DNA from: an uncultured Bacteroidota bacterium
GTDB taxonomy: Bacteria > Bacteroidota > Bacteroidia > Bacteroidales > WCHB1-69
DNA length: 64,000 bases
Direction: 5' to 3'
Assembly: GCA_902786595.1 (NCBI GenBank)
Contig: CADADB010000003.1
Coordinates: 85,206-149,205, forward strand
Part shown: positions 283 to 13,017 of the stretch, piece by piece
Layout: every line of letters begins with the position of its first letter
Position numbering within the stretch: position 1 is the first letter of the stretch
Notes under the pieces: model-generated
What the model was told of the DNA's origin: nothing
The model's database searches: none
What the model saw: the letters and a program-made list of their open reading frames with translations, nothing else
Translations under genes and position numbers: made by a program

Positions 283-948
283 ATGAACATTCTCTTTCTT
301 CACGGAATGGGTGGTGGTGGTAACAGCTACATACCCCGCTGTCTGGATAAAAAGCTCTCGAAAATGCATTTCATCACCAATGATGGTGAGCCGTGCGACC
401 TCAAGGTCATACGTAAGACCTACAACTACGACCCGGACATTGCGACGGAGCAGATCTCCAGACTGGTGGAGACCAATCACCCCGTCCTCGTCATAGGGGA
501 ATCTATGGGGGCCATCCACGCGCTCGGCATCCGGGGCATCCCGCACATTTATCTCAGTCCGGCACTCAACTACGACAGAGGTGTCGACTTCTTCATGCCA
601 CTGGCTGAATTTTGCAGTCGGATTGGGCGCACCTATCGGAATCGGCGCGGTGCCAGACGTCAAGAGATTGTCGGCGACCCAGAACTGCTGGCCAAGTTCA
701 AGCCGATGCTGGAGGGTTACAAGCAGGCCATCCTCGACAATCCCCGTGACCCTTCCTATGCATACTTCGGCACGAACGACCCCTTCAAGGTGAGGGGGAT
801 CGTCAGTGTTGAGGAGTATAAACGGCTCTATGGCGACAGTGGGGACAATTACGAGGAGTTTGAAGGGGGGCACGTCTTGGATGTCAGTCGTCTCGATGAC
901 ACCCTTGTGCCGAAGATTGTCGAAATGCTCGGTTTGGAGGTTGCATAA
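283..948 (+). CDS. alpha/beta hydrolase, YqiA-like esterase family
   Basis: 221 aa. N-terminal LFLHGMGGGGNS and nucleophile elbow GESMG. Confidence 0.6.
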   Translation: MNILFLHGMGGGGNSYIPRCLDKKLSKMHFITNDGEPCDLKVIRKTYNYDPDIATEQISRLVETNHPVLVIGESMGAIHALGIRGIPHIYLSPALNYDRGVDFFMPLAEFCSRIGRTYRNRRGARRQEIVGDPELLAKFKPMLEGYKQAILDNPRDPSYAYFGTNDPFKVRGIVSVEEYKRLYGDSGDNYEEFEGGHVLDVSRLDDTLVPKIVEMLGLEVA

Positions 949-960
949 ACCTCCAAACCG
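930..960. repeat. 12-bp hairpin (cggtttggaggt / acctccaaaccg) spanning the stop codon of 283..948
   Basis: Read directly. Related to the palindrome at 114..155. Confidence 0.7.
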
Positions 961-1068
961 TCTCGAAATGAGATAAAACCAACTATTTCAACAGTTGAAA
1001 ACTTGCAGTTCCATAACGAATAAAAATCATCAAAAAAACGGCCTTTCTTAAGATGTATGAATATTTTT

Positions 1069-1150
1069 TATTTTTGTCGCACCGTTCCCCTGCCATAATG
1101 TTTAATGGACTTCGCATTATGATTGACGGCGGCGTGAAAAGTGATAAATC
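1069..1150 (+). promoter_or_regulatory. -7 box (tatttttg, 1069..1076) plus conserved leader hairpin, copy A
   Basis: TAnnTTTG match. Stem cataatg (1094..1100) / cattatg (1115..1121) encloses the 14-nt loop tttaatggacttcg. Related to copies at 4851..4946 and 10719..10810. Confidence 0.55.
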
Positions 1151-1174
1151 AGAAGTTCACCAGAATAGTTGACA

Positions 1175-2155
1175 ATGACAAATAAAACCAACACTTTACC
1201 TTCTTGGAATGCGCAAGAAGCAATCGACAGAATAGCAAATGGCGGCCGTTTCACCGCTGGTGCCGTCCGCACCGATGTCTATAAGCACAACCAGACCATC
1301 TTCACCGCCTGGAAATACATTGCCCCTTCGGGCGAAATCGTCGACCTGCCCGGCACGCGCCAGGAGCTGCTGGATGCCACAAAAGTATATCGGGAAGAGG
1401 TATCTGCCGATAAGGTTCCGAGCCGCTATAAGACCACCAAGACCGGGTGTGCCAACGAGGATTGCGTGGTGGTTGCCAAAGGTCTCATTGACCAGGGACT
1501 GAATCCTGCCGTATTGAACTTGGCGGACGCCTACCACGCTTGTGGAAAGTACAACTCAGGGGCGAATGCACAGGAAGAGAGCATCTGCCGTGCTTCCACT
1601 CTTTCGCAGACCCTTTATCAATACTATAACAACAGTTGGGCCCAAAAAGTCGGCGTGCCTCTCCGTGAACAAAGTGCCTATCCGATGCACATCCGTTTTG
1701 GCGGCATCTATTCTCCCGTCACGGTGTTCCGCGATAATGGTTCGACCGGATTCGCCCTGCGCGAAGAACCTTTCCAGACCGCCATTATCTCCGTAGCCGC
1801 GCTCAATTTCAAAGAGGGTCACGAGCACAACAATCTGGAATATCGTGCTGAAGATGGCGGTTTCACCAAAGAGGGTGATGAGATTATGCGCGACAAAATC
1901 CGCACTATCTATCGTATCGCCCTGCTCAACGGTCACGATTCGCTCGTGTTAGGCGCAATGGGCTGCGGGGTTTTCAAACTCAAACCGGAGCTTGTGTCGG
2001 CATTGTTCAAGGAGACTCTCGAGGAGAAGGAGTTCAAGGGCAAGTTCCACACCATCGTCTTCGCGCTGATGGAAGGTCCTGCAGGAAAGCGCAAGAAGGT
2101 GGAAGAAGAGGGCAAGCTGGGCTCCTTCTATGAGACGTTTGGAAGGTGGGAGTAA
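1175..2155 (+). CDS. PARG-like macro-domain protein (TIGR02452/DUF2263-like)
   Basis: Motif VLNLADAYHACGKYNSGANAQEESICRASTLSQTLY resembles the family signature N(F/L)A.A..PGGG....A.AQEE.(L/I)CR.S.L. ATG at 1175 preferred over TTG at 1169. Confidence 0.65.
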   Translation: MTNKTNTLPSWNAQEAIDRIANGGRFTAGAVRTDVYKHNQTIFTAWKYIAPSGEIVDLPGTRQELLDATKVYREEVSADKVPSRYKTTKTGCANEDCVVVAKGLIDQGLNPAVLNLADAYHACGKYNSGANAQEESICRASTLSQTLYQYYNNSWAQKVGVPLREQSAYPMHIRFGGIYSPVTVFRDNGSTGFALREEPFQTAIISVAALNFKEGHEHNNLEYRAEDGGFTKEGDEIMRDKIRTIYRIALLNGHDSLVLGAMGCGVFKLKPELVSALFKETLEEKEFKGKFHTIVFALMEGPAGKRKKVEEEGKLGSFYETFGRWE

Positions 2156-2198
2156 GTGACAAAAAACATCAGAGATAGTAATACAAACAGATGTCAAT

Positions 2199-2696
2199 AT
2201 GAGAGGATTAAAAGTATATCAAAACCACGTGGCATTTTGGGGCTCCCCCTTTTCAAATTTTCATCCTTGCAGATTCGTATATAAAGATGTTGAATGGAAG
2301 TCTTCCGAGCAATGCTTTATGGCGATGAAAGCATTGCACTTTAAGGATGCCGAATCGTATGAACGCATACTTGAATCAACAACCCCGAAGGAAGCCAAAG
2401 CCATTGGACGAAAGGTTAGGAATTTTAGTTTCGGTTGGTCTGCTGTTTCTGAATCAATCATGTTTGAGGTTGTCTTGGCTAAATTTTCGCAAAATGACGA
2501 CTTGAAAAGTCTGATCTTGAGCGATGAATTCAAAGGTAAAAAATTTGTGGAAGGAAGTCCTGATGACAAAAAATGGGGCGTGGGAATGAGATACACGAAT
2601 CCGGCTATTGATGATGAATCAAATTGGGAAGGCAAAAACCTCCTAGGAAAAGTTCTTGACAAAGTAAGAGAACAATTATCAAGCGAACAATTATAA
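2199..2696 (+). CDS. NADAR (YbiA/DUF1768) family protein
   Basis: 165 aa. FWGSPFSNFHP...EWKSSEQCFMAMKA...TPKEAKAIGRKV...GKNLLGKVL matches the NADAR layout. Confidence 0.8.
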   Translation: MRGLKVYQNHVAFWGSPFSNFHPCRFVYKDVEWKSSEQCFMAMKALHFKDAESYERILESTTPKEAKAIGRKVRNFSFGWSAVSESIMFEVVLAKFSQNDDLKSLILSDEFKGKKFVEGSPDDKKWGVGMRYTNPAIDDESNWEGKNLLGKVLDKVREQLSSEQL

Positions 2697-2751
2697 AACA
2701 TACTATCAATAAGCACACATTCCGAGAATCTTCGAAGAGCACCTAATTAGA

Positions 2752-3246
2752 ATGAATCGTATAAAATCGTCTCAGGAAATTCAAAGAGCTGGAAATGAAG
2801 TGACAGACATAAAGTGTGTGGAATTCGGGACAACACTGGATGGTAACCGATCGATCCCAAACTTTGAACTTTGTTTCACATATGGGGGCTGCGAGATATG
2901 GATGGCAGAAGATGACGATAGTCAACAGATAGAAAAGGAAACCCTTTGTCGCATATATGATGAGAACCGGGAACGTTTCTCCCAAGCGGTTATTCCTGTT
3001 TTGCAGAAGATGTTGGATGGCGAAATAATCAGTTATGGTTTGCCGGGCAGCCATCAACTGGAGTTAGCCCGTGACAATCACTTTTTGTTATATGACAATA
3101 TGATTGATGACAATCTCATAGCCGTAATCCCATATCCGGCATACGGTCTTGCGGAAATCGCTCAAATGATTAATGATTGGGCGTACGGCCGTTGTAATCC
3201 CATAAAGGGTAGGGAAGGGATTTGGAGCATCTATGATGAACAATAA
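2752..3246 (+). CDS. hypothetical protein
   Basis: Clean 164-aa ORF in a same-strand cargo array. No motif recognised. Confidence 0.45.
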   Translation: MNRIKSSQEIQRAGNEVTDIKCVEFGTTLDGNRSIPNFELCFTYGGCEIWMAEDDDSQQIEKETLCRIYDENRERFSQAVIPVLQKMLDGEIISYGLPGSHQLELARDNHFLLYDNMIDDNLIAVIPYPAYGLAEIAQMINDWAYGRCNPIKGREGIWSIYDEQ

Positions 3247-3291
3247 TGATATCCCTAACTTATACTAACCGCCTCTTTGTTGGCATGATTT

Positions 3292-4098
3292 TTGCAAAAC
3301 AAACCAACAAAAACCATAAATAATAATATGAATCAAAACACCAATCCCAAGTCTGACAGCCTTTCGGCTGCCCTCCAACAACGTGACAACTCTCGCAATG
3401 ATGCGGGTTACACCTTTCTTGAGCATCTGTTGACACCCAACTCCCCGGGGAGACCTGAATCTGCCACCTTCAAGGAGTATTACACCCTGCGATTTCCGTC
3501 CGACCTGCCCAAATTTTACGACATAGATGTCACCTGCCGCAATTTCGCCTATCCCTTCGTGTTGGGCATGGAACCGCCAAGGGTGGATGAAAATGGGAGA
3601 TGCTATGGGCACAACAAAAAACGGAATGATTTTTGGTTTGAAGGCGACCGTCACTTCAGTATGTTTGCTGCCGCGGTATTCTACACTTCAGCCTGTGCGC
3701 AGGTTGTCGGCAAGCTGTATGGGCGCAAGGCAATGGAGGATTTCCACAAGGCCAGCGGCTGGCCGATGCTGAACTGCGGCATGGGCGGACTGATGAGTCC
3801 TGTGCAGGTGATGCTGGATAGCCGGTTATATCCTTGTACGGCAGGGTTGGACGACTTCATCAAGGTCTTCGACGAGGCGTCTGCTTACCTCGAGGCCGAT
3901 TTCGCCGATTTCTTCCGGAACGATAGTGCCAACCTTGACCCCGTCGCCTATGCCGCTATGCGCGAAACGGCAGATACGGATGCCTTGTGTGAGGAGTTGT
4001 CCCGTCAGCGCGACCTTTTCCTTCGCTGGCTCCGCGACCCGAGAACAAAATATGAGTTGTACTATATCCCGATTGAGACGATGAGGGATCCTTCTTGA
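3292..4098 (+). CDS. hypothetical protein (alternative start 3328)
   Basis: 268-aa ORF. A -7-like box (gatttttgc) lies just upstream. No motif recognised. Confidence 0.5.
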   Translation: MQNKPTKTINNNMNQNTNPKSDSLSAALQQRDNSRNDAGYTFLEHLLTPNSPGRPESATFKEYYTLRFPSDLPKFYDIDVTCRNFAYPFVLGMEPPRVDENGRCYGHNKKRNDFWFEGDRHFSMFAAAVFYTSACAQVVGKLYGRKAMEDFHKASGWPMLNCGMGGLMSPVQVMLDSRLYPCTAGLDDFIKVFDEASAYLEADFADFFRNDSANLDPVAYAAMRETADTDALCEELSRQRDLFLRWLRDPRTKYELYYIPIETMRDPS

Positions 4099-4113
4099 TA
4101 ATTTGAACAGGAT

Positions 4114-4182
4114 TATTTTTGTCGCACCGTCTCCTTGCCATTCCAGACCACGATCTAAATTTCGGCACATTGTGCCATCGTG
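4114..4182 (+). promoter_or_regulatory. -7 box (tatttttg, 4114..4121) plus leader, copy B (divergent)
   Basis: The first ~25 nt (tttttgtcgcaccgtctccttgcca) match copy A. The downstream hairpin is different: ccacgat...ggcac att gtgcc...atcgtg. Confidence 0.45.
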
Positions 4183-4197
4183 TATAAAAAACTTACT

Positions 4198-4830
4198 ATG
4201 AATGAATTATCCCAAAATTATCTCCCATACATTTTGCTGAAAAAGCGTGCCGAAATGTATTCCAATATCGCAGAAAGCGGGTTCTGTCCTTTGAAAAAAG
4301 TGAGTTTTCATTTTTCCGACCCGTATTCGGATTGGGTAGATGTCACCGTCTCCATTGATGGAGAGGAAGTGGCAAAAGCGCGTTTGTCAAATGTTTTGTC
4401 TAGTGATCCTGTAGGCGAAATGATCGATTGGGTAGAGGCTTGCACTAACAATCACAGCAATTATTGCTTTCCGTTCGGTGAAGGCACCGATTATATTTTC
4501 CATTATGAAGATTTGCTCTATTCCCCAATCCAAAGGAAAAAGGACGGGAAAAGATTAGAGACTGGGATTTTCTCGTTGTTTATTAAAAGGATAGAAGGCA
4601 TTCAGTTTGAATATGCATTATGTGACACGAAAGAGTTTGTTGAAAGCTTTTATGATGCGATTCTCGATTTTGCCAAGAGGCAGGAGACCAATGAGAACGT
4701 TGTGGATGACTGGGCAGGGGATTTGTATGGCGATGGAAGAGAAAAGTATAGTGAAGAAGACAAACAAAAGGTTAGGAGGAGGATGCTTGGCAATATGAGG
4801 TCTCCCATAATAGAGGAATACATTAAATGA
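4198..4830 (+). CDS. hypothetical protein
   Basis: ORF 4180..4830. ATG at 4198 preferred over GTG at 4180. No motif recognised. Confidence 0.5.
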   Translation: MNELSQNYLPYILLKKRAEMYSNIAESGFCPLKKVSFHFSDPYSDWVDVTVSIDGEEVAKARLSNVLSSDPVGEMIDWVEACTNNHSNYCFPFGEGTDYIFHYEDLLYSPIQRKKDGKRLETGIFSLFIKRIEGIQFEYALCDTKEFVESFYDAILDFAKRQETNENVVDDWAGDLYGDGREKYSEEDKQKVRRRMLGNMRSPIIEEYIK

Positions 4831-4850
4831 AACCGCTAATAATAATGAAT

Positions 4851-4946
4851 TAATTATGCAGCGTTGTTTGCTTATCTTGATGTTTAACGGACTTTGCACC
4901 AAGGTCGGCGGCGGCGCGAAGAAGTAAAAAAAATAGAAATCCCCTT
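4851..4946 (+). promoter_or_regulatory. Near -7 box (taattatg) plus conserved leader hairpin, copy C
   Basis: About 6 mismatches to copy D over the first ~70 nt. Inner stem cttgatg (4876..4882) / caccaag (4897..4903), loop tttaacggactttg. Outer stem gcgttgt (4861..4867) / gcggcgc (4911..4917). Confidence 0.6.
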
Positions 4947-4952
4947 GATGAT

Positions 4953-5516
4953 ATGAAAAACAATGAACCGATTCGCCTCTTAGGCGTCCGCGATGATTTT
5001 CGCAAAGTCAACTATGAAGAGTACAAGGACAGTTGTACCAATGAATTACTCCAACAATTCCGTGACGGGAAACTTGATGAAGACACCCCGATAGAGACCC
5101 TGCGCGGTCTGATGTACGGCTATACCTTCACCGATGAGTACGCCCAAAGCTGCCATTATCTAGACAGTCCGTTCAGCGTCCGGTATTGGGAGGATATTCT
5201 TGAGAATGACGATTTTCTTGAGGATGACAATCTTATAGACACTTATCAATACCAGACCGAACAGATTATTGACACAATACTGAGTACTGGTGACGGAAAA
5301 ACACCTGCTACTGCCTTCTGCGTCATCGACGTCTACCAGGAGTACGAGTTGTTGGATGAGATTTTCGTCTATAATGTGCCGAAGATAACCCGACAAAAGT
5401 TATTGGAAGGCGGTATTGACTGCATCGAATTCGAGCCGAACGATTTCGGGGTGGAAAAACTCTATTTCGATGTCCATCGGAGATTTGATGTGGATTATCC
5501 CAGGCCCTCTAAATAG
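4953..5516 (+). CDS. hypothetical protein (possibly DUF4919-like)
   Basis: 187-aa ORF directly after leader copy C. The segment GDGKTPATAFCVIDVYQEYELL is reminiscent of DUF4919, but this is unverified. Confidence 0.5.
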   Translation: MKNNEPIRLLGVRDDFRKVNYEEYKDSCTNELLQQFRDGKLDEDTPIETLRGLMYGYTFTDEYAQSCHYLDSPFSVRYWEDILENDDFLEDDNLIDTYQYQTEQIIDTILSTGDGKTPATAFCVIDVYQEYELLDEIFVYNVPKITRQKLLEGGIDCIEFEPNDFGVEKLYFDVHRRFDVDYPRPSK

Positions 5517-5645
5517 GGTGTTGAAGATGATATAAATGTATGAATATGAGCTCTATTTTCAAAGCAGTGTTGGCATTGCACACTGTGCCGTAGCAGAACA
5601 CCCTATTGTGGCCGGCGATGTAGGGCACCATCGGTGCGGTGGCTT

Positions 5646-6233
5646 TTACCCCTCAATGACCAGTTTTTCGAAGGTGTAGTAGTGTTCGGGGATGGGCGCA
5701 TCAAATTCGAGTCCATACCTGTCGGCGCGGTCGGTGGGTTTCAATGTCTCCACCCATTCTTGGTATTCATCGAATATCATATCGTTGTAATCTTCTCGTG
5801 CGTATTCTTCGTCATAATCTTCATCAGAAGTGTCCCAATCCTCTTTTTCAAGGTATTGTTCGAAACTTACAGAAGGAGTAAACAAACCGGCTTTTATATC
5901 TTCAGGCATCGTTTCCTCAAAGAAAAATTCTGTTGGGGGATCTGTTTCCAGGAAGCTTGCTACCGCCAACTCATAAGCCTCGGATTCAGCATCACCGAAA
6001 ATAGAGCTTAATTCTCGGTCAACCTGTTGGGAAATGCCATCCGAGTTGCTTATCAAATTATCCAAATCTTCGCTGGAGAGATCCAGTTCAATCTCGTTGC
6101 TTGCCTTTTCGTCATCTACCTGTTCGTCGCAATGTACCCACTGTTTGAGCAATTCGGCCAGTTCGTCGCTGATTTCATATTCCCGGGATTCGTCATTGTA
6201 CCCTCCGCTGATTTCAACATACAATTTATTCAT
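5646..6233 (-). CDS. highly acidic hypothetical protein
   Basis: 195 aa. I count 58 D+E against roughly 12 K+R. Confidence 0.55.
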   Translation of the reverse strand: MNKLYVEISGGYNDESREYEISDELAELLKQWVHCDEQVDDEKASNEIELDLSSEDLDNLISNSDGISQQVDRELSSIFGDAESEAYELAVASFLETDPPTEFFFEETMPEDIKAGLFTPSVSFEQYLEKEDWDTSDEDYDEEYAREDYNDMIFDEYQEWVETLKPTDRADRYGLEFDAPIPEHYYTFEKLVIEG

Positions 6234-6291
6234 ATTTTTAGTTTTGGGTTAATTATAAAATGGATTTGCTTGATACTGAATGGATTTTTTG

Positions 6292-6651
6292 TTAATTTGG
6301 TCCGAAAGCGTCTTCGCCGATGAATTTCACGCTTTCGGGTATGGCCACGTTTTTCAGCTCAAAACATTTGAAGAAGGCGCTCTCGCCGATGGTTTCCAAA
6401 CCTTCCGGCAGGACGATGCTTTTGAGTTTGTAGCAATTCCTAAACGCATTCGCCTCGATGGTTTTCAAGTTTTTTGACAGTTTCACGCTTTCGAGATTCG
6501 GACAACCGGAGAATGCGCCCTCTTTGATGACCGTGACGCTGTCGGGCATTTCCACGGAGAGCAAGTCCTCTTTGGTGGCGAATTCGGATTCTTTGATGAC
6601 CCTGCGGCGTTCGGGGACGACGAGGTGTGGTGAAGGGTTGGTCTTTTTCAT
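6292..6651 (-). CDS. BspA-type leucine-rich repeat protein (short)
   Basis: Repeats of the form IKEGAFSGCPNLESVKL / IEANAFRNCYKLKSIVL / IGESAFFKCFELKNVAI. Start taken at MKKTNPS (6651). Confidence 0.6.
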   Translation of the reverse strand: MKKTNPSPHLVVPERRRVIKESEFATKEDLLSVEMPDSVTVIKEGAFSGCPNLESVKLSKNLKTIEANAFRNCYKLKSIVLPEGLETIGESAFFKCFELKNVAIPESVKFIGEDAFGPN

Positions 6652-7252
6652 AATTGACAAGTTTTTTGGTTGGTAATTTTGTGTGGTTTTAGCAAAAAAC
6701 GTGCCAAAAATGCAAGGTTGTTTTTCGTGTGGAAAATGACAATGAGGTGGGGGCAGTATAAAATAGTGCTTGGTACATGACAAAAATTTCAGTCTGGTGT
6801 AAGTACTTGGTTAACAATGGCAGACAAGTTAAGATCGGTGTTTTGTTTTCATTTCTGCCTCTCAATAGGAACTCCGTCACAATGTCGAGGCCGTAGCGTA
6901 AGATGCTCTTGGCCTTTCTGTCTTGTATGTGTGTGTGTGACACACTTTTTGAAACAGTATCTTCATTTTGCAGTCAATCTGTTTGACTGCAAAATTACAA
7001 AATCAAATCATTGCGCTCTTAAAACTACTCGTAAAAGACTTTATTTCAGCAATTTCAAATAACGATTAGTCCACTTTAACGGGACAATAGTGAAGAGAAT
7101 TAGAATCTTGTCTTGTACTAGGATTGTGAATATTATTGTGTTTTTGGATAATGTAATGACTTTTTGTGCTAGTTGCATTTTTTATAGCATTATTTGTCAT
7201 TTTTAAGCGAAAAAATGCTATTTTTGCACATTAAAATGTTAATTATATTTTT

Positions 7253-9349
7253 ATGGATACACGTCAATTTTTAGAAAATATCCTACCTGGTAATTATTTC
7301 ATTACCAAATCTATGGAACTGACGAAAAGCCAAACTTCTGGTACATTGTGGTACACTAAGAAGTTTATTGTGCTTTATTACTACATATTCCTTAATGATA
7401 ACATTAATACACTGGCAGTAGCAAAAGAAATCTGTAGTATATTCGATAATTATATTAATTCACTTCCTGAAGAATTGCGAGAAGAAGCCACAGATTATTT
7501 TTATGCTTCTGAAGATGTAGCTGACCTAAGAAGTGAAAACTTTAAATTATTTAGTGATTTTGCTGGGCAAATGCAATTTGCTAATGATAGCGAAAGATTA
7601 TCTTATTATGAATGTGCCAAAAAATACTATTTTGCTTTCTTGATGGAATCTGGTGGGCAAAGCGGTGTAAACAGATGGATAAAAGACCATCTATATACAT
7701 CTGATTTCTGTTATAGTAAAATTGATGATATAATAATAGAATGGGCGGAAAACAACCGTAATAATTTAGAGGCTACAAACCTGTGGTTAAAGAAGTATAG
7801 AAGGGGGGAAGAAGAAAATGCCGTTAGTGGGATGCGAAATGACTATATGGCTTTTGTTAGAAACGAAAGGCAAATATTGTTTTATTATGGTTTTTTCCAT
7901 TCTAAATCCAGTGGTAGCGTAGATAAGGAGTTTAGTAGTTTAACACCGATAGGAGAACTAGCCGTAAAAAGTAACTTCTATGAATTAATAGCTATCTGGG
8001 AACATCAAAAGATAAAAATGTTATCACAACCTGTTAATATTGATATTAGAGGTTTGGCAGATAGTGTAATTAGCAATAAAAATAAATTTACCGTTAATAT
8101 AAATCCATACCTTACCATACTTAAATCATTAAGAAGTACTATGGGCTTTTCAAAAGAAGCCTACCAGTATATTATTTCCAGATTACCAGAGTATCCAAGT
8201 GACGGTGTCGATGTATCTGCTTCTTTTATTAAAAGTGTTAAGAAAAAGGTTATAGGCTTCCATAGAACGGCAGATGTAGCTACAGAAGATTTCAACAAAG
8301 AAATTTTAAAATACATTCTGGGAATCAGAAGTGATTTGGTTAAAGATATGAATTGTAATCCTTTCGGGTTGTGCCAATGGGATAATAGAGGATTAATCGT
8401 AACAAACCAAAGTAAGCTCGATCGGCTTATTGAAATTTATTCCATTCTATGTAATTACAAATCCCAGAAGTATAATGTATTATTTCAAGACTGCACAAAC
8501 GAATTAAAAAGACAATTTGCATGTGGCGCTGAAAATCTAGAGTATCGCATAAATCCAAAGATTAAGATAGACTGGGATATGTATAATATCCATTCTGACC
8601 TTCCTATTCTTTTGGCTACAACAGTACTATTACTGGAAGCAAAAGATAGTATCATCCTTAGTAAGGATACCATTGATTGTTTTACTGATGGCATTAGAAA
8701 TTTATGCCCCAACATATTAAGAATTTTAGGATTGACTAGTAAAGTGGCACTAAGGAATGAACTAAGGAATGTTGAGACTGTATTTACTGAAAAGATTTTT
8801 GATGTTTACTTAGAAGAAAACGATGAAGATTATGGCACAACTATAACAACATATCTGGAAGAATCGTTATCTGATCTGGAACAGAAGATAAAAGAAAATT
8901 CCAATTTGGCTCCTGTATATGTAGATGGTGTGCGTAAGCGTAATATGGTACTTATTAGTTTGATAAAATCATATAATCTACAGAAATATACAGTAGGTGG
9001 TCAGATATTAAAATGTGAATGTTGCGGCAAACCAACATTCATAACCTATAGGAATGAATCTTATGTAGAATATCACCACCTAATACCATTTAGTGAATTT
9101 GATGGACCTGACCATAATCTTAACATTTTGGCACTATGCCCGATGTGCCATAGAAAACTACATTTTCTAAGGCAAGAAGAAAAACTAGCATTATATAATG
9201 ATATTGCAGTTAATAGTTATAGTCATTTGTCAATAGAAAACAGATTGGTGGGTTTGCATAACGAACACAAACTAAAATCATACCAATTAGAGTTTCTTTT
9301 AGCTGATAACGCAATTGATGAAGATGCTTATAATCGAATCTTACAGTGA
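7253..9349 (+). CDS. HNH-domain nuclease, putative restriction endonuclease
   Basis: 698 aa. C-terminal CECCGK...YVEYHHLIPF...NILALCPMCHRKLH is an HNH/zinc-finger motif. Sits in an AT-rich block with two DNA methyltransferases on the same strand. Confidence 0.7.
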   Translation: MDTRQFLENILPGNYFITKSMELTKSQTSGTLWYTKKFIVLYYYIFLNDNINTLAVAKEICSIFDNYINSLPEELREEATDYFYASEDVADLRSENFKLFSDFAGQMQFANDSERLSYYECAKKYYFAFLMESGGQSGVNRWIKDHLYTSDFCYSKIDDIIIEWAENNRNNLEATNLWLKKYRRGEEENAVSGMRNDYMAFVRNERQILFYYGFFHSKSSGSVDKEFSSLTPIGELAVKSNFYELIAIWEHQKIKMLSQPVNIDIRGLADSVISNKNKFTVNINPYLTILKSLRSTMGFSKEAYQYIISRLPEYPSDGVDVSASFIKSVKKKVIGFHRTADVATEDFNKEILKYILGIRSDLVKDMNCNPFGLCQWDNRGLIVTNQSKLDRLIEIYSILCNYKSQKYNVLFQDCTNELKRQFACGAENLEYRINPKIKIDWDMYNIHSDLPILLATTVLLLEAKDSIILSKDTIDCFTDGIRNLCPNILRILGLTSKVALRNELRNVETVFTEKIFDVYLEENDEDYGTTITTYLEESLSDLEQKIKENSNLAPVYVDGVRKRNMVLISLIKSYNLQKYTVGGQILKCECCGKPTFITYRNESYVEYHHLIPFSEFDGPDHNLNILALCPMCHRKLHFLRQEEKLALYNDIAVNSYSHLSIENRLVGLHNEHKLKSYQLEFLLADNAIDEDAYNRILQ

Positions 9350-9379
9350 TCTCTAATTATTTCTAACTGATTGCCAGAT

Positions 9380-10640
9380 AATTGCAGGCAAAAACCTCCG
9401 CAAAAAAGACTTCTGAAATTCCCATTTTGGCCAAGTGGCCGTCTTTGAACTTTTTACGATGAAAATTTCTTGTAACCAATTGTCATTCAAAGAATTATTT
9501 GTATATTTGCCGCAAATTAGAATGGACAATGAATCAGACCAAACCAACCTACAAACAGCAAGGTAACGTCGGGCTTTTTGACAGCGACGAGACAATGGAG
9601 AAATTCAACAAGTTGGACAACCCTTTGGACAAACTCTCAAAAGCGGTTGATTTAGAGATGTTGAGAGGGAATTTGGAGAAGGGGCTTTATAAGGAGAAGT
9701 TCACCAAGGTGGGCGCGAGACCGTATGACTACGTGCTGATGTTCAAGATTGTAGTGCTGCAGCGGATATACTATCTCAGCGACGCGCAGGCGGAATACCA
9801 GATCTGCGACAGGCTCTCGTTCCGCGATTTCCTCGGACTGGCAGCGGCGACAAGGTGCCCGACGAGAAAACAATATGGGCTTTCAAGGAGGAATTGACAA
9901 AGAAAGGGTCTTTTTGAGCAATTGTTCAATGAATTTTTCGCTTTTCTGGAGGAGAACAACCTGATTTTGCATGAGGGCACCATGATAGACGGGAGCTTCG
10001 TGGAGATACCGCGCCAGCACAACACACGCGAAGAGAACAAAATAATCAAGGAAGACAGGGGCGGCGAGTTGTGGAATCCCGAAGAGGGCGACACCGAGGA
10101 GGAGAAGAGGCGCAAAGCCAACAAGAAAAGGCAGAAGGACACGGATGCTCGATGGGTGAAGAAGGGCGGCGAGAAGCATTACGGCTACAAAAGCCACGCA
10201 AAAGTGGACAAGGGAAGCAAGTTTATCAAGAAAGGGGTGACCACAAATGCGTCCGTTTATGACTCCACGCCTGTGAAAGAGCTTGTGGATGAGAATGACA
10301 GGGGTGAAGATTTGTTCGCTGACAGTGCCTAAATCGGCAAAGGGGTGAAGAGGGTGATGCGGAGGTTCGGGATGAAGGACAAGGTGATCAAGCGGAACAC
10401 AAGAGGCAAGAAAATCAGCAAATGGCAGGAGACCATCAACAGAAAGAACTCGAAGCTGCGCGTGAGGGTGGAGCATGTGTTCGGGTTTATGGAAGAGAGC
10501 CTTCACGGAATGTCCAGCCGCGAGGTCGGTTTTGCGCGGAACGCAGCCTATAACACCCTGACAGACCGGGTCTACAACCTGTTCCGGTACGAGCAAGAAC
10601 TATGTCTTAGGATAAATTAACTAATTAAAAATCAAATGGT
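9380..10640 (+). mobile_element. Decayed IS5-family insertion sequence (ends approximate)
   Basis: A GC-richer insert between the R and M genes that carries a fragmented DDE transposase. I could not identify terminal inverted repeats. Confidence 0.55.
9529..10620 (+). pseudogene. IS5-family transposase, disrupted (two frameshifts near 9840-9920, TAA at 10330..10332)
   Basis: Three frame fragments: MNQTKPTYKQQGNVGLFD...DFLGL, GDKVPDEKTIWAFKEELTKKG / EQLFNEFF...HYGYKSHAKVD...FADSA*, and IGKG...RVRVEHVFGFM. Confidence 0.7.
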
Positions 10641-10718
10641 TGAACAAATAGAAATAATAAAAATATTAACAAACTACAAACTTTTGGTTTTTTGCATCCT
10701 TTTAATAGATAAAAGAAT

Positions 10719-10810
10719 TAATTTTGCAGCGTTGTTTGCTTATCTTGATGTTAAAAGGACTTCGCACCAAGGTCGGCGACAGCGCGAAAAAGTAAAAAAG
10801 AAGTCCCCTT
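10719..10810 (+). promoter_or_regulatory. -7 box (taattttg, 10719..10726) plus conserved leader hairpin, copy D
   Basis: Inner stem cttgatg (10744..10750) / caccaag (10765..10771), loop ttaaaaggacttcg. Outer stem gcgttgt (10729..10735) / acagcgc (10779..10785). Confidence 0.6.
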
Positions 10811-10822
10811 ACAAATAGCATA

Positions 10823-11644
10823 ATGGAAAAATCAAAAATAGATAGTTTCATAGGATACATTACCAATGGTGATTGTACGGAAATACTTTCCAAAATAGAA
10901 AGTAATAGTGTTGATTTGGTTGTTACTAGTCCACCATACGATAACTTAAGGGATTATAAAAAGGATTCTACTTGGAACATTGATAGTTTCAAAAAAATAG
11001 CGAAACAACTATATCGAGTTATGAAAGATGGTGGTGTAGTAGTCTGGGTGGTCGGTGATTCTGTTATTAAGGGTAACAAATCACTTACCAGTTTTAGGCA
11101 AGCATTATATTTCCAAGAAATTGGATTTAATATGTATGATGTTATAATTTATGAGAAAGCTGGCACTGCTCCCCCACATAAAAATAGATATTTTAATGCT
11201 TTTGAGTATATGTTTGTACTTTCGAAGGGATTGCCAAAAACAATAAACCTAATAGAAGATAAACCTAATAATTGGGCTAACCATACTACTTTTGGTAATG
11301 TTACTAGAAGGGAACAAGATGGTACGTTAACCCCTAAAGGAAAGAAAGTAATAAAACCTTTTGGCATTAGGACTAATATATGGAGATATAACAATGGCAA
11401 AGGTTTTGCTACTAAAGATAAAATTGCTTATGAACATCCTGCTATTTTCCCAGAAAAGCTAGTAGAAGACCATATTATATCGTGGTCAAATGAAGGAGAT
11501 ATAGTTTTAGATCCTTTTTGCGGGAGTGGTACAGTTGCAAAAGTTGCCACAGAACTAAATAGAAGATGGGTAGGTATAGAAATATCTAAAGAATACTGTA
11601 GAATAGCAAACGAAAGATTAGGATTGGAATGTACGGAACAATAA
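10823..11644 (+). CDS. DNA methyltransferase, N4/N6 beta-class (PF01555-like)
   Basis: VVTSPPYDNLRDY (motif IV) is N-terminal. HPAIFPEKL and VLDPFCGSGT (motif I) are C-terminal. Confidence 0.85.
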   Translation: MEKSKIDSFIGYITNGDCTEILSKIESNSVDLVVTSPPYDNLRDYKKDSTWNIDSFKKIAKQLYRVMKDGGVVVWVVGDSVIKGNKSLTSFRQALYFQEIGFNMYDVIIYEKAGTAPPHKNRYFNAFEYMFVLSKGLPKTINLIEDKPNNWANHTTFGNVTRREQDGTLTPKGKKVIKPFGIRTNIWRYNNGKGFATKDKIAYEHPAIFPEKLVEDHIISWSNEGDIVLDPFCGSGTVAKVATELNRRWVGIEISKEYCRIANERLGLECTEQ

Positions 11645-13017
11645 TTATAAATGACAATATCCAAAATAGTATCAAATTACTAGAATCCAATATTGACAAA
11701 TTGGATGTCAATGGCAATGTCTTTGTTTTAGTAAGAAACGAAGTAGATGCTATTGGTGATGTTACTAATGATTTTCTGGATATAATAGAAGCTGCAGTTA
11801 AATTAAAGTATTTCTATGTGAATACAATAGTAGCACCTACTAAAAACGTAATACCTTCAAATCTGCCAGATAATGTTTTGTATATAGTATGGTTAGCAAA
11901 AGATAAAAACCATTTCTTTAATAAAGATGTAATCCGTGAAAGCCATATCTGGAAAGATGTGGAATGGGGGAAAAGGGCAAAAAATTACAATCCTAAAGGC
12001 AAAGATCCTGGAAATGTTTGGATACCAACTAAGGATGATGGAAAGGCAAATATTACCGAACATATACTTTTAGATACATCTGCTATCATCAACAGATTAC
12101 ACAAATGCTCAACACAAGAAGGTAAAGATACTATATATTTAACGTCAAAGAGTATTAGTAGTTTAAATCTGGATAGTAGTATTACTGTTGTATATAGTAA
12201 TAATGATTATGTCCCACCGATACCTTCAAAGATTTCTTATAGCAAATCTATAAATGATAAGCCGAATAATATCACTGGAAGTGTTATCTGGGGAACTTCT
12301 GAAAATATGGATAAGATACCGGATGGGAGTATAAATGTTGTTATCACATCACCCCCATACTGGGATTTAAAGGATTATTTTAAAAAAGGGCAAATAGGTC
12401 AAGAATCGTATAACACCTACTTAGATAGGCTATATAAGGTATGGGAAGGGTGCTATAATAAACTTACCGAAAACGGCTCGTTATGGCTAAATATAAACAT
12501 AAGAACAAAAAACGGAAAAGTAATACTTATTCCTAGAGATTTTGTTGCACAATGCCGTAAAATCGGATTCCATTATAAAGGTGTTCTGATTTGGCACAAA
12601 TCTTCTGGTATCCCTACACACGATAAGAATATAGTAGATAGACACGAATATGTACTAGTGTTTTCAAAAAGTGAGTACCTGATTATTAATGACTGTATAT
12701 CAAATTTTAAAGATTACAAAAATGAAAGTATTAACGGTGGCTTATTCTGGAATATTAATAGGAAAGCTGGTAGTGTAGGTAAACATTTTATACACCCTGC
12801 AATATATCCGAATGGTTTAGTTTCCCGTATAGTACAAATTACCACAAATGTAAATGATACGGTACTAGACCCATTTTTAGGAAGTGGTACTACTTTAATT
12901 GCCTCCGTATTGGAAGGTAGAAGCTGTATTGGATATGAGTATAATGAAGGATTTAAGGAATTAATATTAAGCAGATTTAATAATGAAGTTGACTTGTTAG
13001 CTAAATTGAAAATATGA
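11629..13017 (+). CDS. DNA methyltransferase, N4/N6 beta-class, with a degenerate N-terminal methylase-like domain
   Basis: C-terminal half has VITSPPYWDLKDY, HPAIYPNGL and VLDPFLGSGT. N-terminal half has YIVWLAKDK...GKDPGNVW...EHILLDT, the same layout without catalytic motifs. Overlaps the upstream gene by 16 nt. Confidence 0.8.
   Translation: MYGTIIINDNIQNSIKLLESNIDKLDVNGNVFVLVRNEVDAIGDVTNDFLDIIEAAVKLKYFYVNTIVAPTKNVIPSNLPDNVLYIVWLAKDKNHFFNKDVIRESHIWKDVEWGKRAKNYNPKGKDPGNVWIPTKDDGKANITEHILLDTSAIINRLHKCSTQEGKDTIYLTSKSISSLNLDSSITVVYSNNDYVPPIPSKISYSKSINDKPNNITGSVIWGTSENMDKIPDGSINVVITSPPYWDLKDYFKKGQIGQESYNTYLDRLYKVWEGCYNKLTENGSLWLNINIRTKNGKVILIPRDFVAQCRKIGFHYKGVLIWHKSSGIPTHDKNIVDRHEYVLVFSKSEYLIINDCISNFKDYKNESINGGLFWNINRKAGSVGKHFIHPAIYPNGLVSRIVQITTNVNDTVLDPFLGSGTTLIASVLEGRSCIGYEYNEGFKELILSRFNNEVDLLAKLKI

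Follow-up and report, generated by a model that had tools for sequence, protein, structure and literature searches.

We analysed a window of 64,000 nucleotides from an uncultured Bacteroidales bacterium (lineage WCHB1-69). Three copies of a short cassette (A, C, and D) precede unrelated genes in this window, and copy D forms one end of a decayed insertion sequence (IS). The features, by position in the window, are as follows.

1069..1161, + strand: copy A, an old solo right end
1069-1076, + strand: copy A box TATTTTTG
1079-1135, + strand: copy A hairpin, loop 1101-1114
1136-1161, + strand: copy A inverted-repeat remnant, degenerate
1175..2155, + strand: PARG-like macro-domain gene behind copy A
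4851..4944, + strand: copy C, a solo right end without IS body upstream
4851-4858, + strand: copy C box TAATTATG, one mismatch to TAnnTTTG
4861-4917, + strand: copy C hairpin, loop 4883-4896
4918-4944, + strand: copy C inverted-repeat remnant
4953..5516, + strand: DUF4919 gene behind copy C, starting 8 nt past the IS end
7253..9349, + strand: HNH endonuclease gene, final codons replaced through the IS insertion
9341..9344, no strand: target-site duplication TTAC, left copy, repeated at 10809-10812
9345..10808, + strand: IS5-family IS, decayed but end-to-end, 1464 bp, with copy D as its right end
9345..9367, + strand: left inverted repeat AGTGATCTCTAATTATTTCTAAC (row L003 of the repeat comparison)
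9529..10605, + strand: IS5-family transposase pseudogene, 84% identical to the intact 357-aa transposase
10606..10718, + strand: conserved IS spacer, from the transposase stop to the putative outward promoter
10719..10726, + strand: copy D box TAATTTTG, putative outward-facing -7 promoter box
10729..10785, + strand: copy D leader hairpin, outer stem 10729-10736 with 10778-10785
10744-10750 with 10765-10771, + strand: copy D inner stem, loop 10751-10764
10786..10808, + strand: copy D right terminal inverted repeat (IRR) GAAAAAGTAAAAAAGAAGTCCCC
10809..10812, no strand: target-site duplication TTAC, right copy
10823..13017, + strand: two N6/N4 DNA methylase genes, 14 nt past the end of the IS

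Copies A, C, and D lay where an earlier note on this DNA had placed them, with covariance-model (CM) scores of 127, 109, and 118 bits, and the model found no further copies in the window. A core pattern with up to three mismatches returned the same three sites, where shuffles predicted 0.00. A fourth copy (Z) was located 1.5 kb upstream of the window, at G000:C3:83594-83710, and the gene behind it is a paralogue of the gene behind copy A, indicating that cassette and gene were duplicated together. The TAnnTTTG-type box followed by a hairpin that the note had described in each copy was present in all three, with the one mismatch in the copy C box, and the 14-nt loops and stem sequences were as it had quoted them, including a single A.C mismatch within the 7-bp stem of C and D. 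For the differences between C and D it had given about six, and we counted seven positions plus one indel. The ORF before copy C ends with its stop at 4830. Beyond the IS of copy D, no left repeat was found elsewhere in the window, and copies A and C therefore consist of the right end only and are not MITEs.

An IS5-family IS of the IS1168/IS1169 clade supplies the cassette, which makes up the final ~90-115 bp on its right-hand side. Homology between the intact copy L136 and the deleted copy L126 spanned from GGGGA(C/T)(T/C)TCTAATTATTTCT to exactly ...ATAGAAGTCCCC, and the terminal inverted repeats read GGGGACTTCTAATTATTTCT on the left and, for the reverse complement of the right end, GGGGACTTCTATTTTTTACTTC. 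The transposase of the intact copy matched the IS5-family model NF033581 with 238.5 bits (cut-off 140) as well as DDE_Tnp_1 and DUF772. Among 117 copies compared, similarity stopped sharply at the IS end on the 3' side, with ragged boundaries on the 5' side. Target duplications were TTAC in the window, TTTA at L126, TTAA at L221 and L223, and ATTA for IS1168. What had been read as a conserved 3' linker of the cassette is the IRR of this IS. As a separate observation, L136 is flanked by a 35-bp direct repeat.

The IS ending in copy D shares the architecture of the intact 1.45-kb IS of L136 and is dead. Its transposase pseudogene, the sole transposase copy in the source genome, has two internal stops (one TGA and one TAA), and the tip of AGTGATCTCTAATTATTTCTAAC is mutated relative to the GGGGA(C/T)(T/C)TCTAATTATTTCT of intact copies. 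The insertion split an overlapping HNH-nuclease/methylase (R-M) operon, so that the stop codon of the HNH endonuclease gene now falls within the IS left inverted repeat and the IS fronts the methylase genes. When we searched the 152 genomes of the family for an empty site, the joined flanks matched only the flanks in the IS's own genome.

The element was found in 89 of these 152 genomes, with up to 21 copies per genome scattered over chromosomal contigs. The hosts were uncultured rumen and horse-gut Bacteroidales from nine genera. When plasmids were searched with the nucleotide sequence of the entire IS, nothing but a trivial 66-nt match came up. Among the 142 copies having at least 1300 nt of upstream context, the upstream transposase was absent in 105 (~74%), reduced to remnants in 32, and full in 5, and remnants were on the same strand as the cassette in 49/50 cases. 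MITE-like forms, having both repeats without a transposase gene, were found at L086, L023, L135, and L161, with both repeats kept in 245-350 bp at L086 and L023. Most copies appear to be leftover ends now serving unrelated host genes as putative promoters. The module was kept across transposases just 46-55% identical, including intact, presumably active elements in several families, and was absent from the more distant relatives G265, G422, G283, and G248 (transposases 42-45% identical). Solo copies at orthologous positions were conserved in place, with the cassette 73-84% identical compared to 44-62% at four-fold degenerate sites and 57-67% in the 100 nt upstream, and some have been retained since before the species diverged.

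Motif, geometry, and homology to IS1168/IS1169 point to promoter activity directed out of the right end and to a start site just past the box. Across 182 copies, box positions 1, 2, and 5-8 were at least 98% conserved and positions 3 and 4 varied freely, giving the TAnnTTTG pattern. The median distance from the IS end to a co-oriented ATG-ORF was 15 nt, and such an ORF began within 40 nt in 78% of cases vs 20% at random positions. The usual spacing in Bacteroides promoters is about 19-21 nt. The TTTG nearest the box lies 24 nt upstream, which exceeds this spacing and counts against the promoter reading; the spacer at 10606..10718 has TTTG motifs at -28 and -37 relative to the box, and solo copies that keep just ~12 nt before the box have none. 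The 118 downstream proteins fell into 86 clusters and represent at least 86 unrelated protein families, in support of the earlier proposal of a portable promoter and structured, covarying leader before unrelated genes. Por_Secre_tail (6) and Fib_succ_major (4) were the top Pfam families, and the others were singletons. Across genomes the downstream genes were mostly ordinary secreted, envelope, and hypothetical ones, with no special tie to conjugative transfer or anti-defence cargo.

Hairpin covariation, first noticed in the three window copies, was strong in a wider set. Over 97 distinct copies, taken from many genomes, pairing held in 92% of cells vs 80% in shuffles, and slid controls were 34-49% paired. 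Cells changed on both sides numbered 277 vs 109 +/- 13 in shuffles, a value reached by 0/500 shuffles, although many copies are recently related and independent compensatory events are consequently fewer than the cell counts suggest. The ratio of G.U to A.C was 206:23 in the outer stem, 55:27 in the inner stem, and 38:14 in a further helix between the loop and the IRR; judged by these substitutions, the fold behaves as sense-strand RNA. In copy D, this third helix joins the loop GGACTTC (10757-10763) to the complementary IRR tip GAAGTCC (10800-10806), and it had 10 cells changed on both sides vs 2.0 +/- 1.3 in shuffles. Some copies had loop-IRR mismatches, including copy C with a C.A mid-helix. 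Folding energies of single copies were unexceptional (z -0.45 to -2.6), and the IS1169 hairpin differs from the predicted minimum-energy fold. Rfam gave no match at gathering score in the window and only a chance snoRNA match in a permissive search (E up to 10) of positions 900-11000, consistent with the earlier statement that the structure belongs to no named RNA family. That statement's companion, a functional RNA or ssDNA structure, fits the RNA-like pairing of the sense strand, but the structure is not free-standing and is part of the IS right end. We know of no description of a leader whose hairpin loop pairs with the IRR in this way, and the locus apparently combines a known kind of element with an undescribed conserved leader fold.

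We propose, with a probability of roughly 0.8, that the cassette is an IS end bearing an outward promoter and a leader fold, and that solo ends are retained by the host. The full element of ~1.45 kb opens with the left inverted repeat, followed by the gene for the 357-aa DDE transposase, a spacer of ~110 nt, and a complete putative outward Bacteroidetes promoter with the -7 box TAnnTTTG. On the 3' side of the box comes the ~57-nt interrupted hairpin with its conserved 14-nt loop, and the ~23-25-bp IRR closes the element. The IS inserts at 4-bp sites rich in A/T, as a rule with 0-30 nt left before a start codon, and would thereby sever the gene from its own promoter. Transcription would then start ~3-6 nt past the box, at the hairpin foot, and run over the IRR into the neighbour gene. 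The leader RNA would form the hairpin, and its loop GGACUUC would pair with the IRR tip GAAGUCC as a pseudoknot. Where the transposase body is later deleted, a solo right end or a MITE-like derivative would remain, to be kept by the host as a promoter. The most likely role of the fold is that of a compact 5' leader that would stabilise the transcript and shield the translation start of arbitrary downstream genes from IS-derived sequence.

Alternatively, the hairpin and loop could act as DNA in transposition, as a sub-terminal binding site for the transposase or a host factor or as a cruciform, with the promoter and RNA fold incidental. The recurrence of the inverted-repeat tip in the loop, the conservation of the module in intact elements of several families, and L172, where the loop and the right and left repeats share one change (GGACCTC), would all suit such a role. 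We consider it unlikely, in that the outer-stem G.U:A.C ratio is nine to one, and a duplex or cruciform would show no G.U excess because G.T on one strand is A.C on the other. Furthermore, where the two repeats differ, the loop tracks the right one: in IS1168, L221, and L223 it matches the right repeat (GGGTTCT) and not the differing left repeat (GGGGACTTCT), and in L153 and L169 the loop and IRR changed together with the left repeat unchanged. Orthologous solo copies, which are immobile, are also still conserved and paired at a divergence where synonymous sites are nearly saturated.

It is quite improbable that the promoter and fold instead serve the IS itself, with the promoter of a circular or tandem intermediate reading over the right-left junction into the transposase gene and effects on neighbour genes arising as a by-product. 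The loop-IRR pairing would then prevent the two repeats from pairing into a hairpin that blocks or terminates. In favour of this, the complete promoter is aimed at the junction, and the module persists across the divergent transposases noted above. In a transcript of the junction, the repeats would pair into an 11-bp G+C-rich stem with a U-rich run (AUUAUUUCUU) behind it, and the loop is a competing partner for that right-repeat strand. Against this, no circle or tandem junction was seen at any locus, and this IS5 group is not known to form circles. The repeat tips of IS1168-type elements differ at three positions, which would weaken the supposed junction hairpin, and the conservation of orthologous solo copies is left unexplained. 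We assign a similarly small likelihood to the idea that the hairpin, loop, and IRR form a dedicated 'right-end RNA' of this IS5 clade acting on transposition itself, which might sense or mask the terminus of the element, or might regulate how the transposase is expressed from transcripts that cross the junction or arise by read-through.

A free-standing cis-regulatory or riboswitch-like leader, or a single-strand promoter used at conjugative entry, spreading without a transposon, is very unlikely. The structured, covarying 5' region with its conserved loop and pseudoknot, and the anti-defence-type genes that follow in the window (PARG, methylases), would be compatible with it. However, the 3' third of the cassette is a transposon inverted repeat that stops where the IS ends and the target duplication begins, the downstream genes have no common function, and the copies sit on chromosomal contigs across 89 genomes. 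A riboswitch or second-messenger function was dropped once the conserved 3' part proved to be the terminal inverted repeat, and a dedicated cis-regulatory leader was rejected since the 86 downstream clusters form no functionally coherent set. The single-strand promoter raised in the earlier note does not fit either: the TAnnTTTG box is no part of the hairpin, which it precedes on the 5' side with 2 nt between it and the first paired base. The box belongs to no stem and would be single-stranded in folded ssDNA. Finally, a leader-peptide attenuator, in which translation of a 15-codon upstream ORF (MFNGLRTKVGGSAKK, with its ATG within the inner stem and its stop past the outer stem) remodels the fold, is hardly credible: most copies in the window's genus do contain the ORF, whose stop alternates between TAA and TGA, and in copies A and Z it has 24 codons and stops 2 nt before the main ATG, but the subfamily in other genera has TTG for ATG and no stop, IS1168, IS1169, L221, and L223 have no such ORF, and third codon positions are not enriched for substitutions.

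Read as an IS end with an outward promoter and leader, the puzzling repeat is the end of a transposon and nothing out of the ordinary, and the annotation of the window is corrected: the 'promoter cassette' that precedes the methylase genes lies inside the IS rather than after it. It also illustrates the reach of one IS family within a lineage, since in nine genera from rumen and hindgut the same IS-derived putative promoter and leader precede genes, as many as 21 of them in one genome. The leader fold is common to IS1168 and IS1169, which turn on nitroimidazole resistance genes in Bacteroides, and if the fold affects expression it would be part of the activation of those genes.

IS1168, IS1169, and IS1186 of Bacteroides fragilis are IS5-family elements whose outward promoters turn on nim and cfiA genes. 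By transposase protein search, IS1169 and IS1168 were the nearest annotated relatives of our element (46% amino-acid identity). Our covariance model R1 did not match either, as their nucleotide sequences are too distant, yet the order of transposase, spacer, -7 box, hairpin, and right repeat is the same, with 90 nt from box to IS end and the box of IS1169 (TAAATTTG) and IS1168 (TAACTTTA) at the same position as here. They likewise have a loop complementary to the right-repeat tip and a 4-bp A/T-rich target duplication. A review lists both among the elements with complete outward promoters, activating nimD and nimA/B (PMC9330008, Table 2), and the activated gene begins about 8-19 nt from the IS end, the nimA-IS1168 distance being 19 nt (PMC13597742). 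In contrast to those recent, antibiotic-selected insertions, our copies are mostly solo ends fixed before ordinary genes in uncultured rumen and horse-gut hosts, and the left and right repeat tips, which differ in IS1168, are identical.

Putative mobile promoters, defined as highly similar upstream regions before non-homologous genes, are in part known insertion sequences (Nijveen et al., PMC3575422). Ours share the highly similar upstream regions and non-homologous genes, but constitute one family with a vehicle, boundaries, orthologous retention, and a conserved RNA fold. The IS5-derived MITEs of Bacteroidales, e.g. in Porphyromonas gingivalis (PMC4596501), are also intergenic IS5-family derivatives without transposase, while copies A and C retain just the right, promoter-bearing end. 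Like IS10 RNA-OUT, the TnpB omega/right-end RNA, and the IS110 bridge RNA, the fold would be a structured RNA in a non-coding transposon end, here with one loop complementary to the terminus of the element. The likeness is a resemblance only: the element has an ordinary DDE transposase, and its transcript is most simply an mRNA leader into the neighbour gene rather than a trans-acting or guide RNA. Were the fold nonetheless a right-end RNA, it would go beyond an mRNA leader and give a DDE transposon its equivalent of the RNAs encoded in the ends of IS10, IS110, and TnpB elements.

The earlier note placed three copies of a promoter-hairpin cassette at 1069-1150 (A), 4851-4946 (C) and 10719-10810 (D). 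They lie upstream of a macro-domain gene (PARG-like), a gene for a small protein (DUF4919) and the methylase genes, respectively. All three were found there, and the stems, loops and G.U pattern it quoted were correct on re-check. With ≤3 mismatches allowed, the core pattern matched A, C and D and nothing else in the 64 kb, vs 0.00 matches expected in shuffles. An unfiltered search with a covariance model derived from the copies detected no additional copy inside the window. The fourth known copy is outside it, 1.5 kb upstream (G000:C3:83594-83710, G000 being the window's own genome). The gene behind it is a paralogue of the PARG-like gene behind copy A, and each of these two copies was duplicated jointly with its PARG-like gene.

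The model was also run on the window's own genome and other Bacteroidales, a check proposed in the earlier note, and further copies were found in both. The window's genome had six strong and several weak copies. Two more strongly diverged copies on other contigs of this genome (G000:C14:70132-70247 and G000:C4:110908-111021) had inner stems that were entirely different yet complementary (GCGGCG/CGCCGC at locus L009). The cassette was present in 53/55 genomes of the genus and in 89/152 genomes and 9/22 genera of the family, a single genome having as many as 21 copies; none were found in 24 other families of the order, each searched through a single representative. The hosts were uncultured Bacteroidales of the rumen and horse gut, including 'Candidatus Limimorpha caballi'. 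The earlier note had not recognised the cassette as a named RNA family, and it matched no family in Rfam.

Alignment of upstream sequence showed that the 60-110 nt before the box were also common to many copies, and some copies had an IS5-type transposase gene on the same strand with its stop ~100 nt upstream. Homology between loci L136 and L126 ran from the left end GGGGA(C/T)(T/C)TCTAATTATTTCT to exactly ...GAAGAAGTAAAAAATAGAAGTCCCC, and these ends are mutual inverted repeats. The conserved 3' part of the cassette, first taken for a 'linker', thus proves to be the right inverted repeat of an insertion sequence (IS) of ~1.45 kb. The 357-aa transposase matched IS5 model NF033581 at 238 bits (cut-off 140) as well as DDE_Tnp_1. 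Among 117 copies aligned to the IS, the 3' boundary coincided sharply with the end of the IS; the 5' boundary was ragged. The transposase was absent from 105 of the 142 copies with sufficient upstream sequence, a remnant in 32 and complete in 5. MITE-like relatives carried both repeats within 245-350 bp. At the intact IS copy L136, a 35-bp direct repeat (TAAGGTTTGTGTAGCTTGTTTACGGAGTAAAGTTA) bordered the element in place of the usual 4-bp duplication. At L028, a reverse-complemented left repeat (AATTAGAAGTCCCC) adjoined the start of a solo cassette, suggesting that members of this IS family inserted into, or head to head with, one another. The IS spacer also contained a small palindrome upstream of the promoter, which both subfamilies conserve and which could be a protein-binding site. 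In the window (e.g. 10628-10645) it reads TCAAATGGTTGA; other genera have TCAAATAGTTGA or TCAAACTGTTGA.

The element carrying copy D is decayed but complete in extent:

9345-10808, IS carrying copy D, flanked on both sides by TTAC

Copy D is inside this IS, not downstream of it. Immediately 3' of the HNH gene lies the left repeat, its tip mutated, and the transposase, the sole copy in the genome, is a pseudogene (84% identical, two stops). Joining the flanks with the IS removed restored ...AATCTTACAAATAGCATAATGG, in which the HNH reading frame stops at a TAA overlapping the methylase ATG (TAATG). It follows that the IS inserted within the final codons of the nuclease gene, 14 nt ahead of the methylase start, and split a coupled R-M operon. 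The nuclease, which had ended in ...LQIA*, now ends in ...LQ*, and its gene is no longer coupled to that of the first methylase (window 9330-9349, 10809-10825). Neither a left repeat nor an IS body was found for copies A and C, which are therefore solo right ends.

The covariation described in the earlier note extended to a set of 97 distinct copies, in which both nested helices were 90% paired, with changes on both sides at 14/15 pairs. The ratio of G.U to A.C was 206:23 for the outer stem and 55:27 for the inner one, an excess that points to a sense-strand RNA and not to duplex DNA. GGACTTC in the loop and GAAGTCC at the tip of the right repeat are complementary, and this loop-repeat helix, outside the covariance model, was 96% paired, with 10 cells changed on both sides vs 2.0 ± 1.3 in shuffles. 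Three loci (L196, L173 and L208) had matched insertions in it. IS1168, L221 and L223 had the left tip GGGGACTTCT, with both loop and right repeat GGGTTCT, while L153 and L169 had loop and right repeat altered together and the left repeat unaltered; in these comparisons the loop tracks the right repeat, not the left. Our preferred reading is a compact 5' leader, complete in itself, which would stabilise or insulate the transcript; the fold may have a role in controlling the element itself.

The box in 182 copies was T(98%) A(98%) n n T(100%) T(99%) T(99%) G(99%), with positions 3 and 4 freely variable, as in the Bacteroides -7 element (motif from PMC9330008). A co-oriented start codon lay at a median of 15 nt past the IS end, and within ≤40 nt in 78% of copies vs 20% of random positions. 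Target sites are near-palindromic and so do not explain this orientation bias. We infer that insertion at -15 is tolerated only when it brings its own promoter. The cassette is a putative promoter, with a predicted start site at the hairpin foot; the weakest pair was the first of the outer stem (29/96 cells unpaired), which fits a start just inside the stem. The hairpin also contained a 15-codon ORF (e.g. MFNGLRTKVGGSAKK) at window 4880-4927 and 10748-10795 and in most copies of the genus, its stop alternating between TAA and TGA. In copies A and Z this ORF had 24 codons, with its stop 2 nt short of the main ATG. Other subfamilies did not conserve the ORF.

An ATG-initiated ORF of at least 40 aa followed 118/136 distinct copies, and the 118 proteins formed 86 unrelated clusters, in agreement with the unrelated cargo genes of the earlier note. 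Their top Pfam families were Por_Secre_tail, Fib_succ_major, TonB_C, OEP and transporters, with PARG and methylases a minor share; hence the cassette has no tie to conjugation or anti-defence cargo, and the suggested link to transfer did not hold on downstream gene content. Solo copies before orthologous genes of different species were 73-84% identical, compared with 57-67% in the 100 nt upstream and 44-62% at four-fold degenerate sites. Their insertion points were identical and their stems largely paired. Together these comparisons argue that solo right ends are retained by the host under selection. Stem pairing was 89% in solo copies vs 92% in IS-attached copies.

The nearest annotated transposases (46% identity) were those of IS1169 and IS1168 from Bacteroides fragilis nim plasmids. 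The promoter-hairpin module was absent from remoter relatives with 42-45% identical transposases, and four copies in genome G265 instead had a terminator-like G+C hairpin and U-run at its place. At two G265 loci (L225 and L226, transposase 45% identical), the G+C-rich hairpin and U-run overlapped the right repeat. Related IS copies in different families (L221, L223 and L227) had 7-10 units of a (GATA)n microsatellite immediately behind the stop codon of the transposase. Complete outward promoters are listed for IS1168, IS1169 and IS1186 in a review (PMC9330008, Table 2). On plasmid pBFO18_1, 8 nt separate the IS1169 end from the nimD start codon; nimA is 19 nt from IS1168 (PMC13597742). In both IS1168 and IS1169 the distance from box to IS end is 90 nt, identical to that of the element described here, and both have a hairpin, with a 13-nt loop TTAAAG(A/G)GTTCTG.
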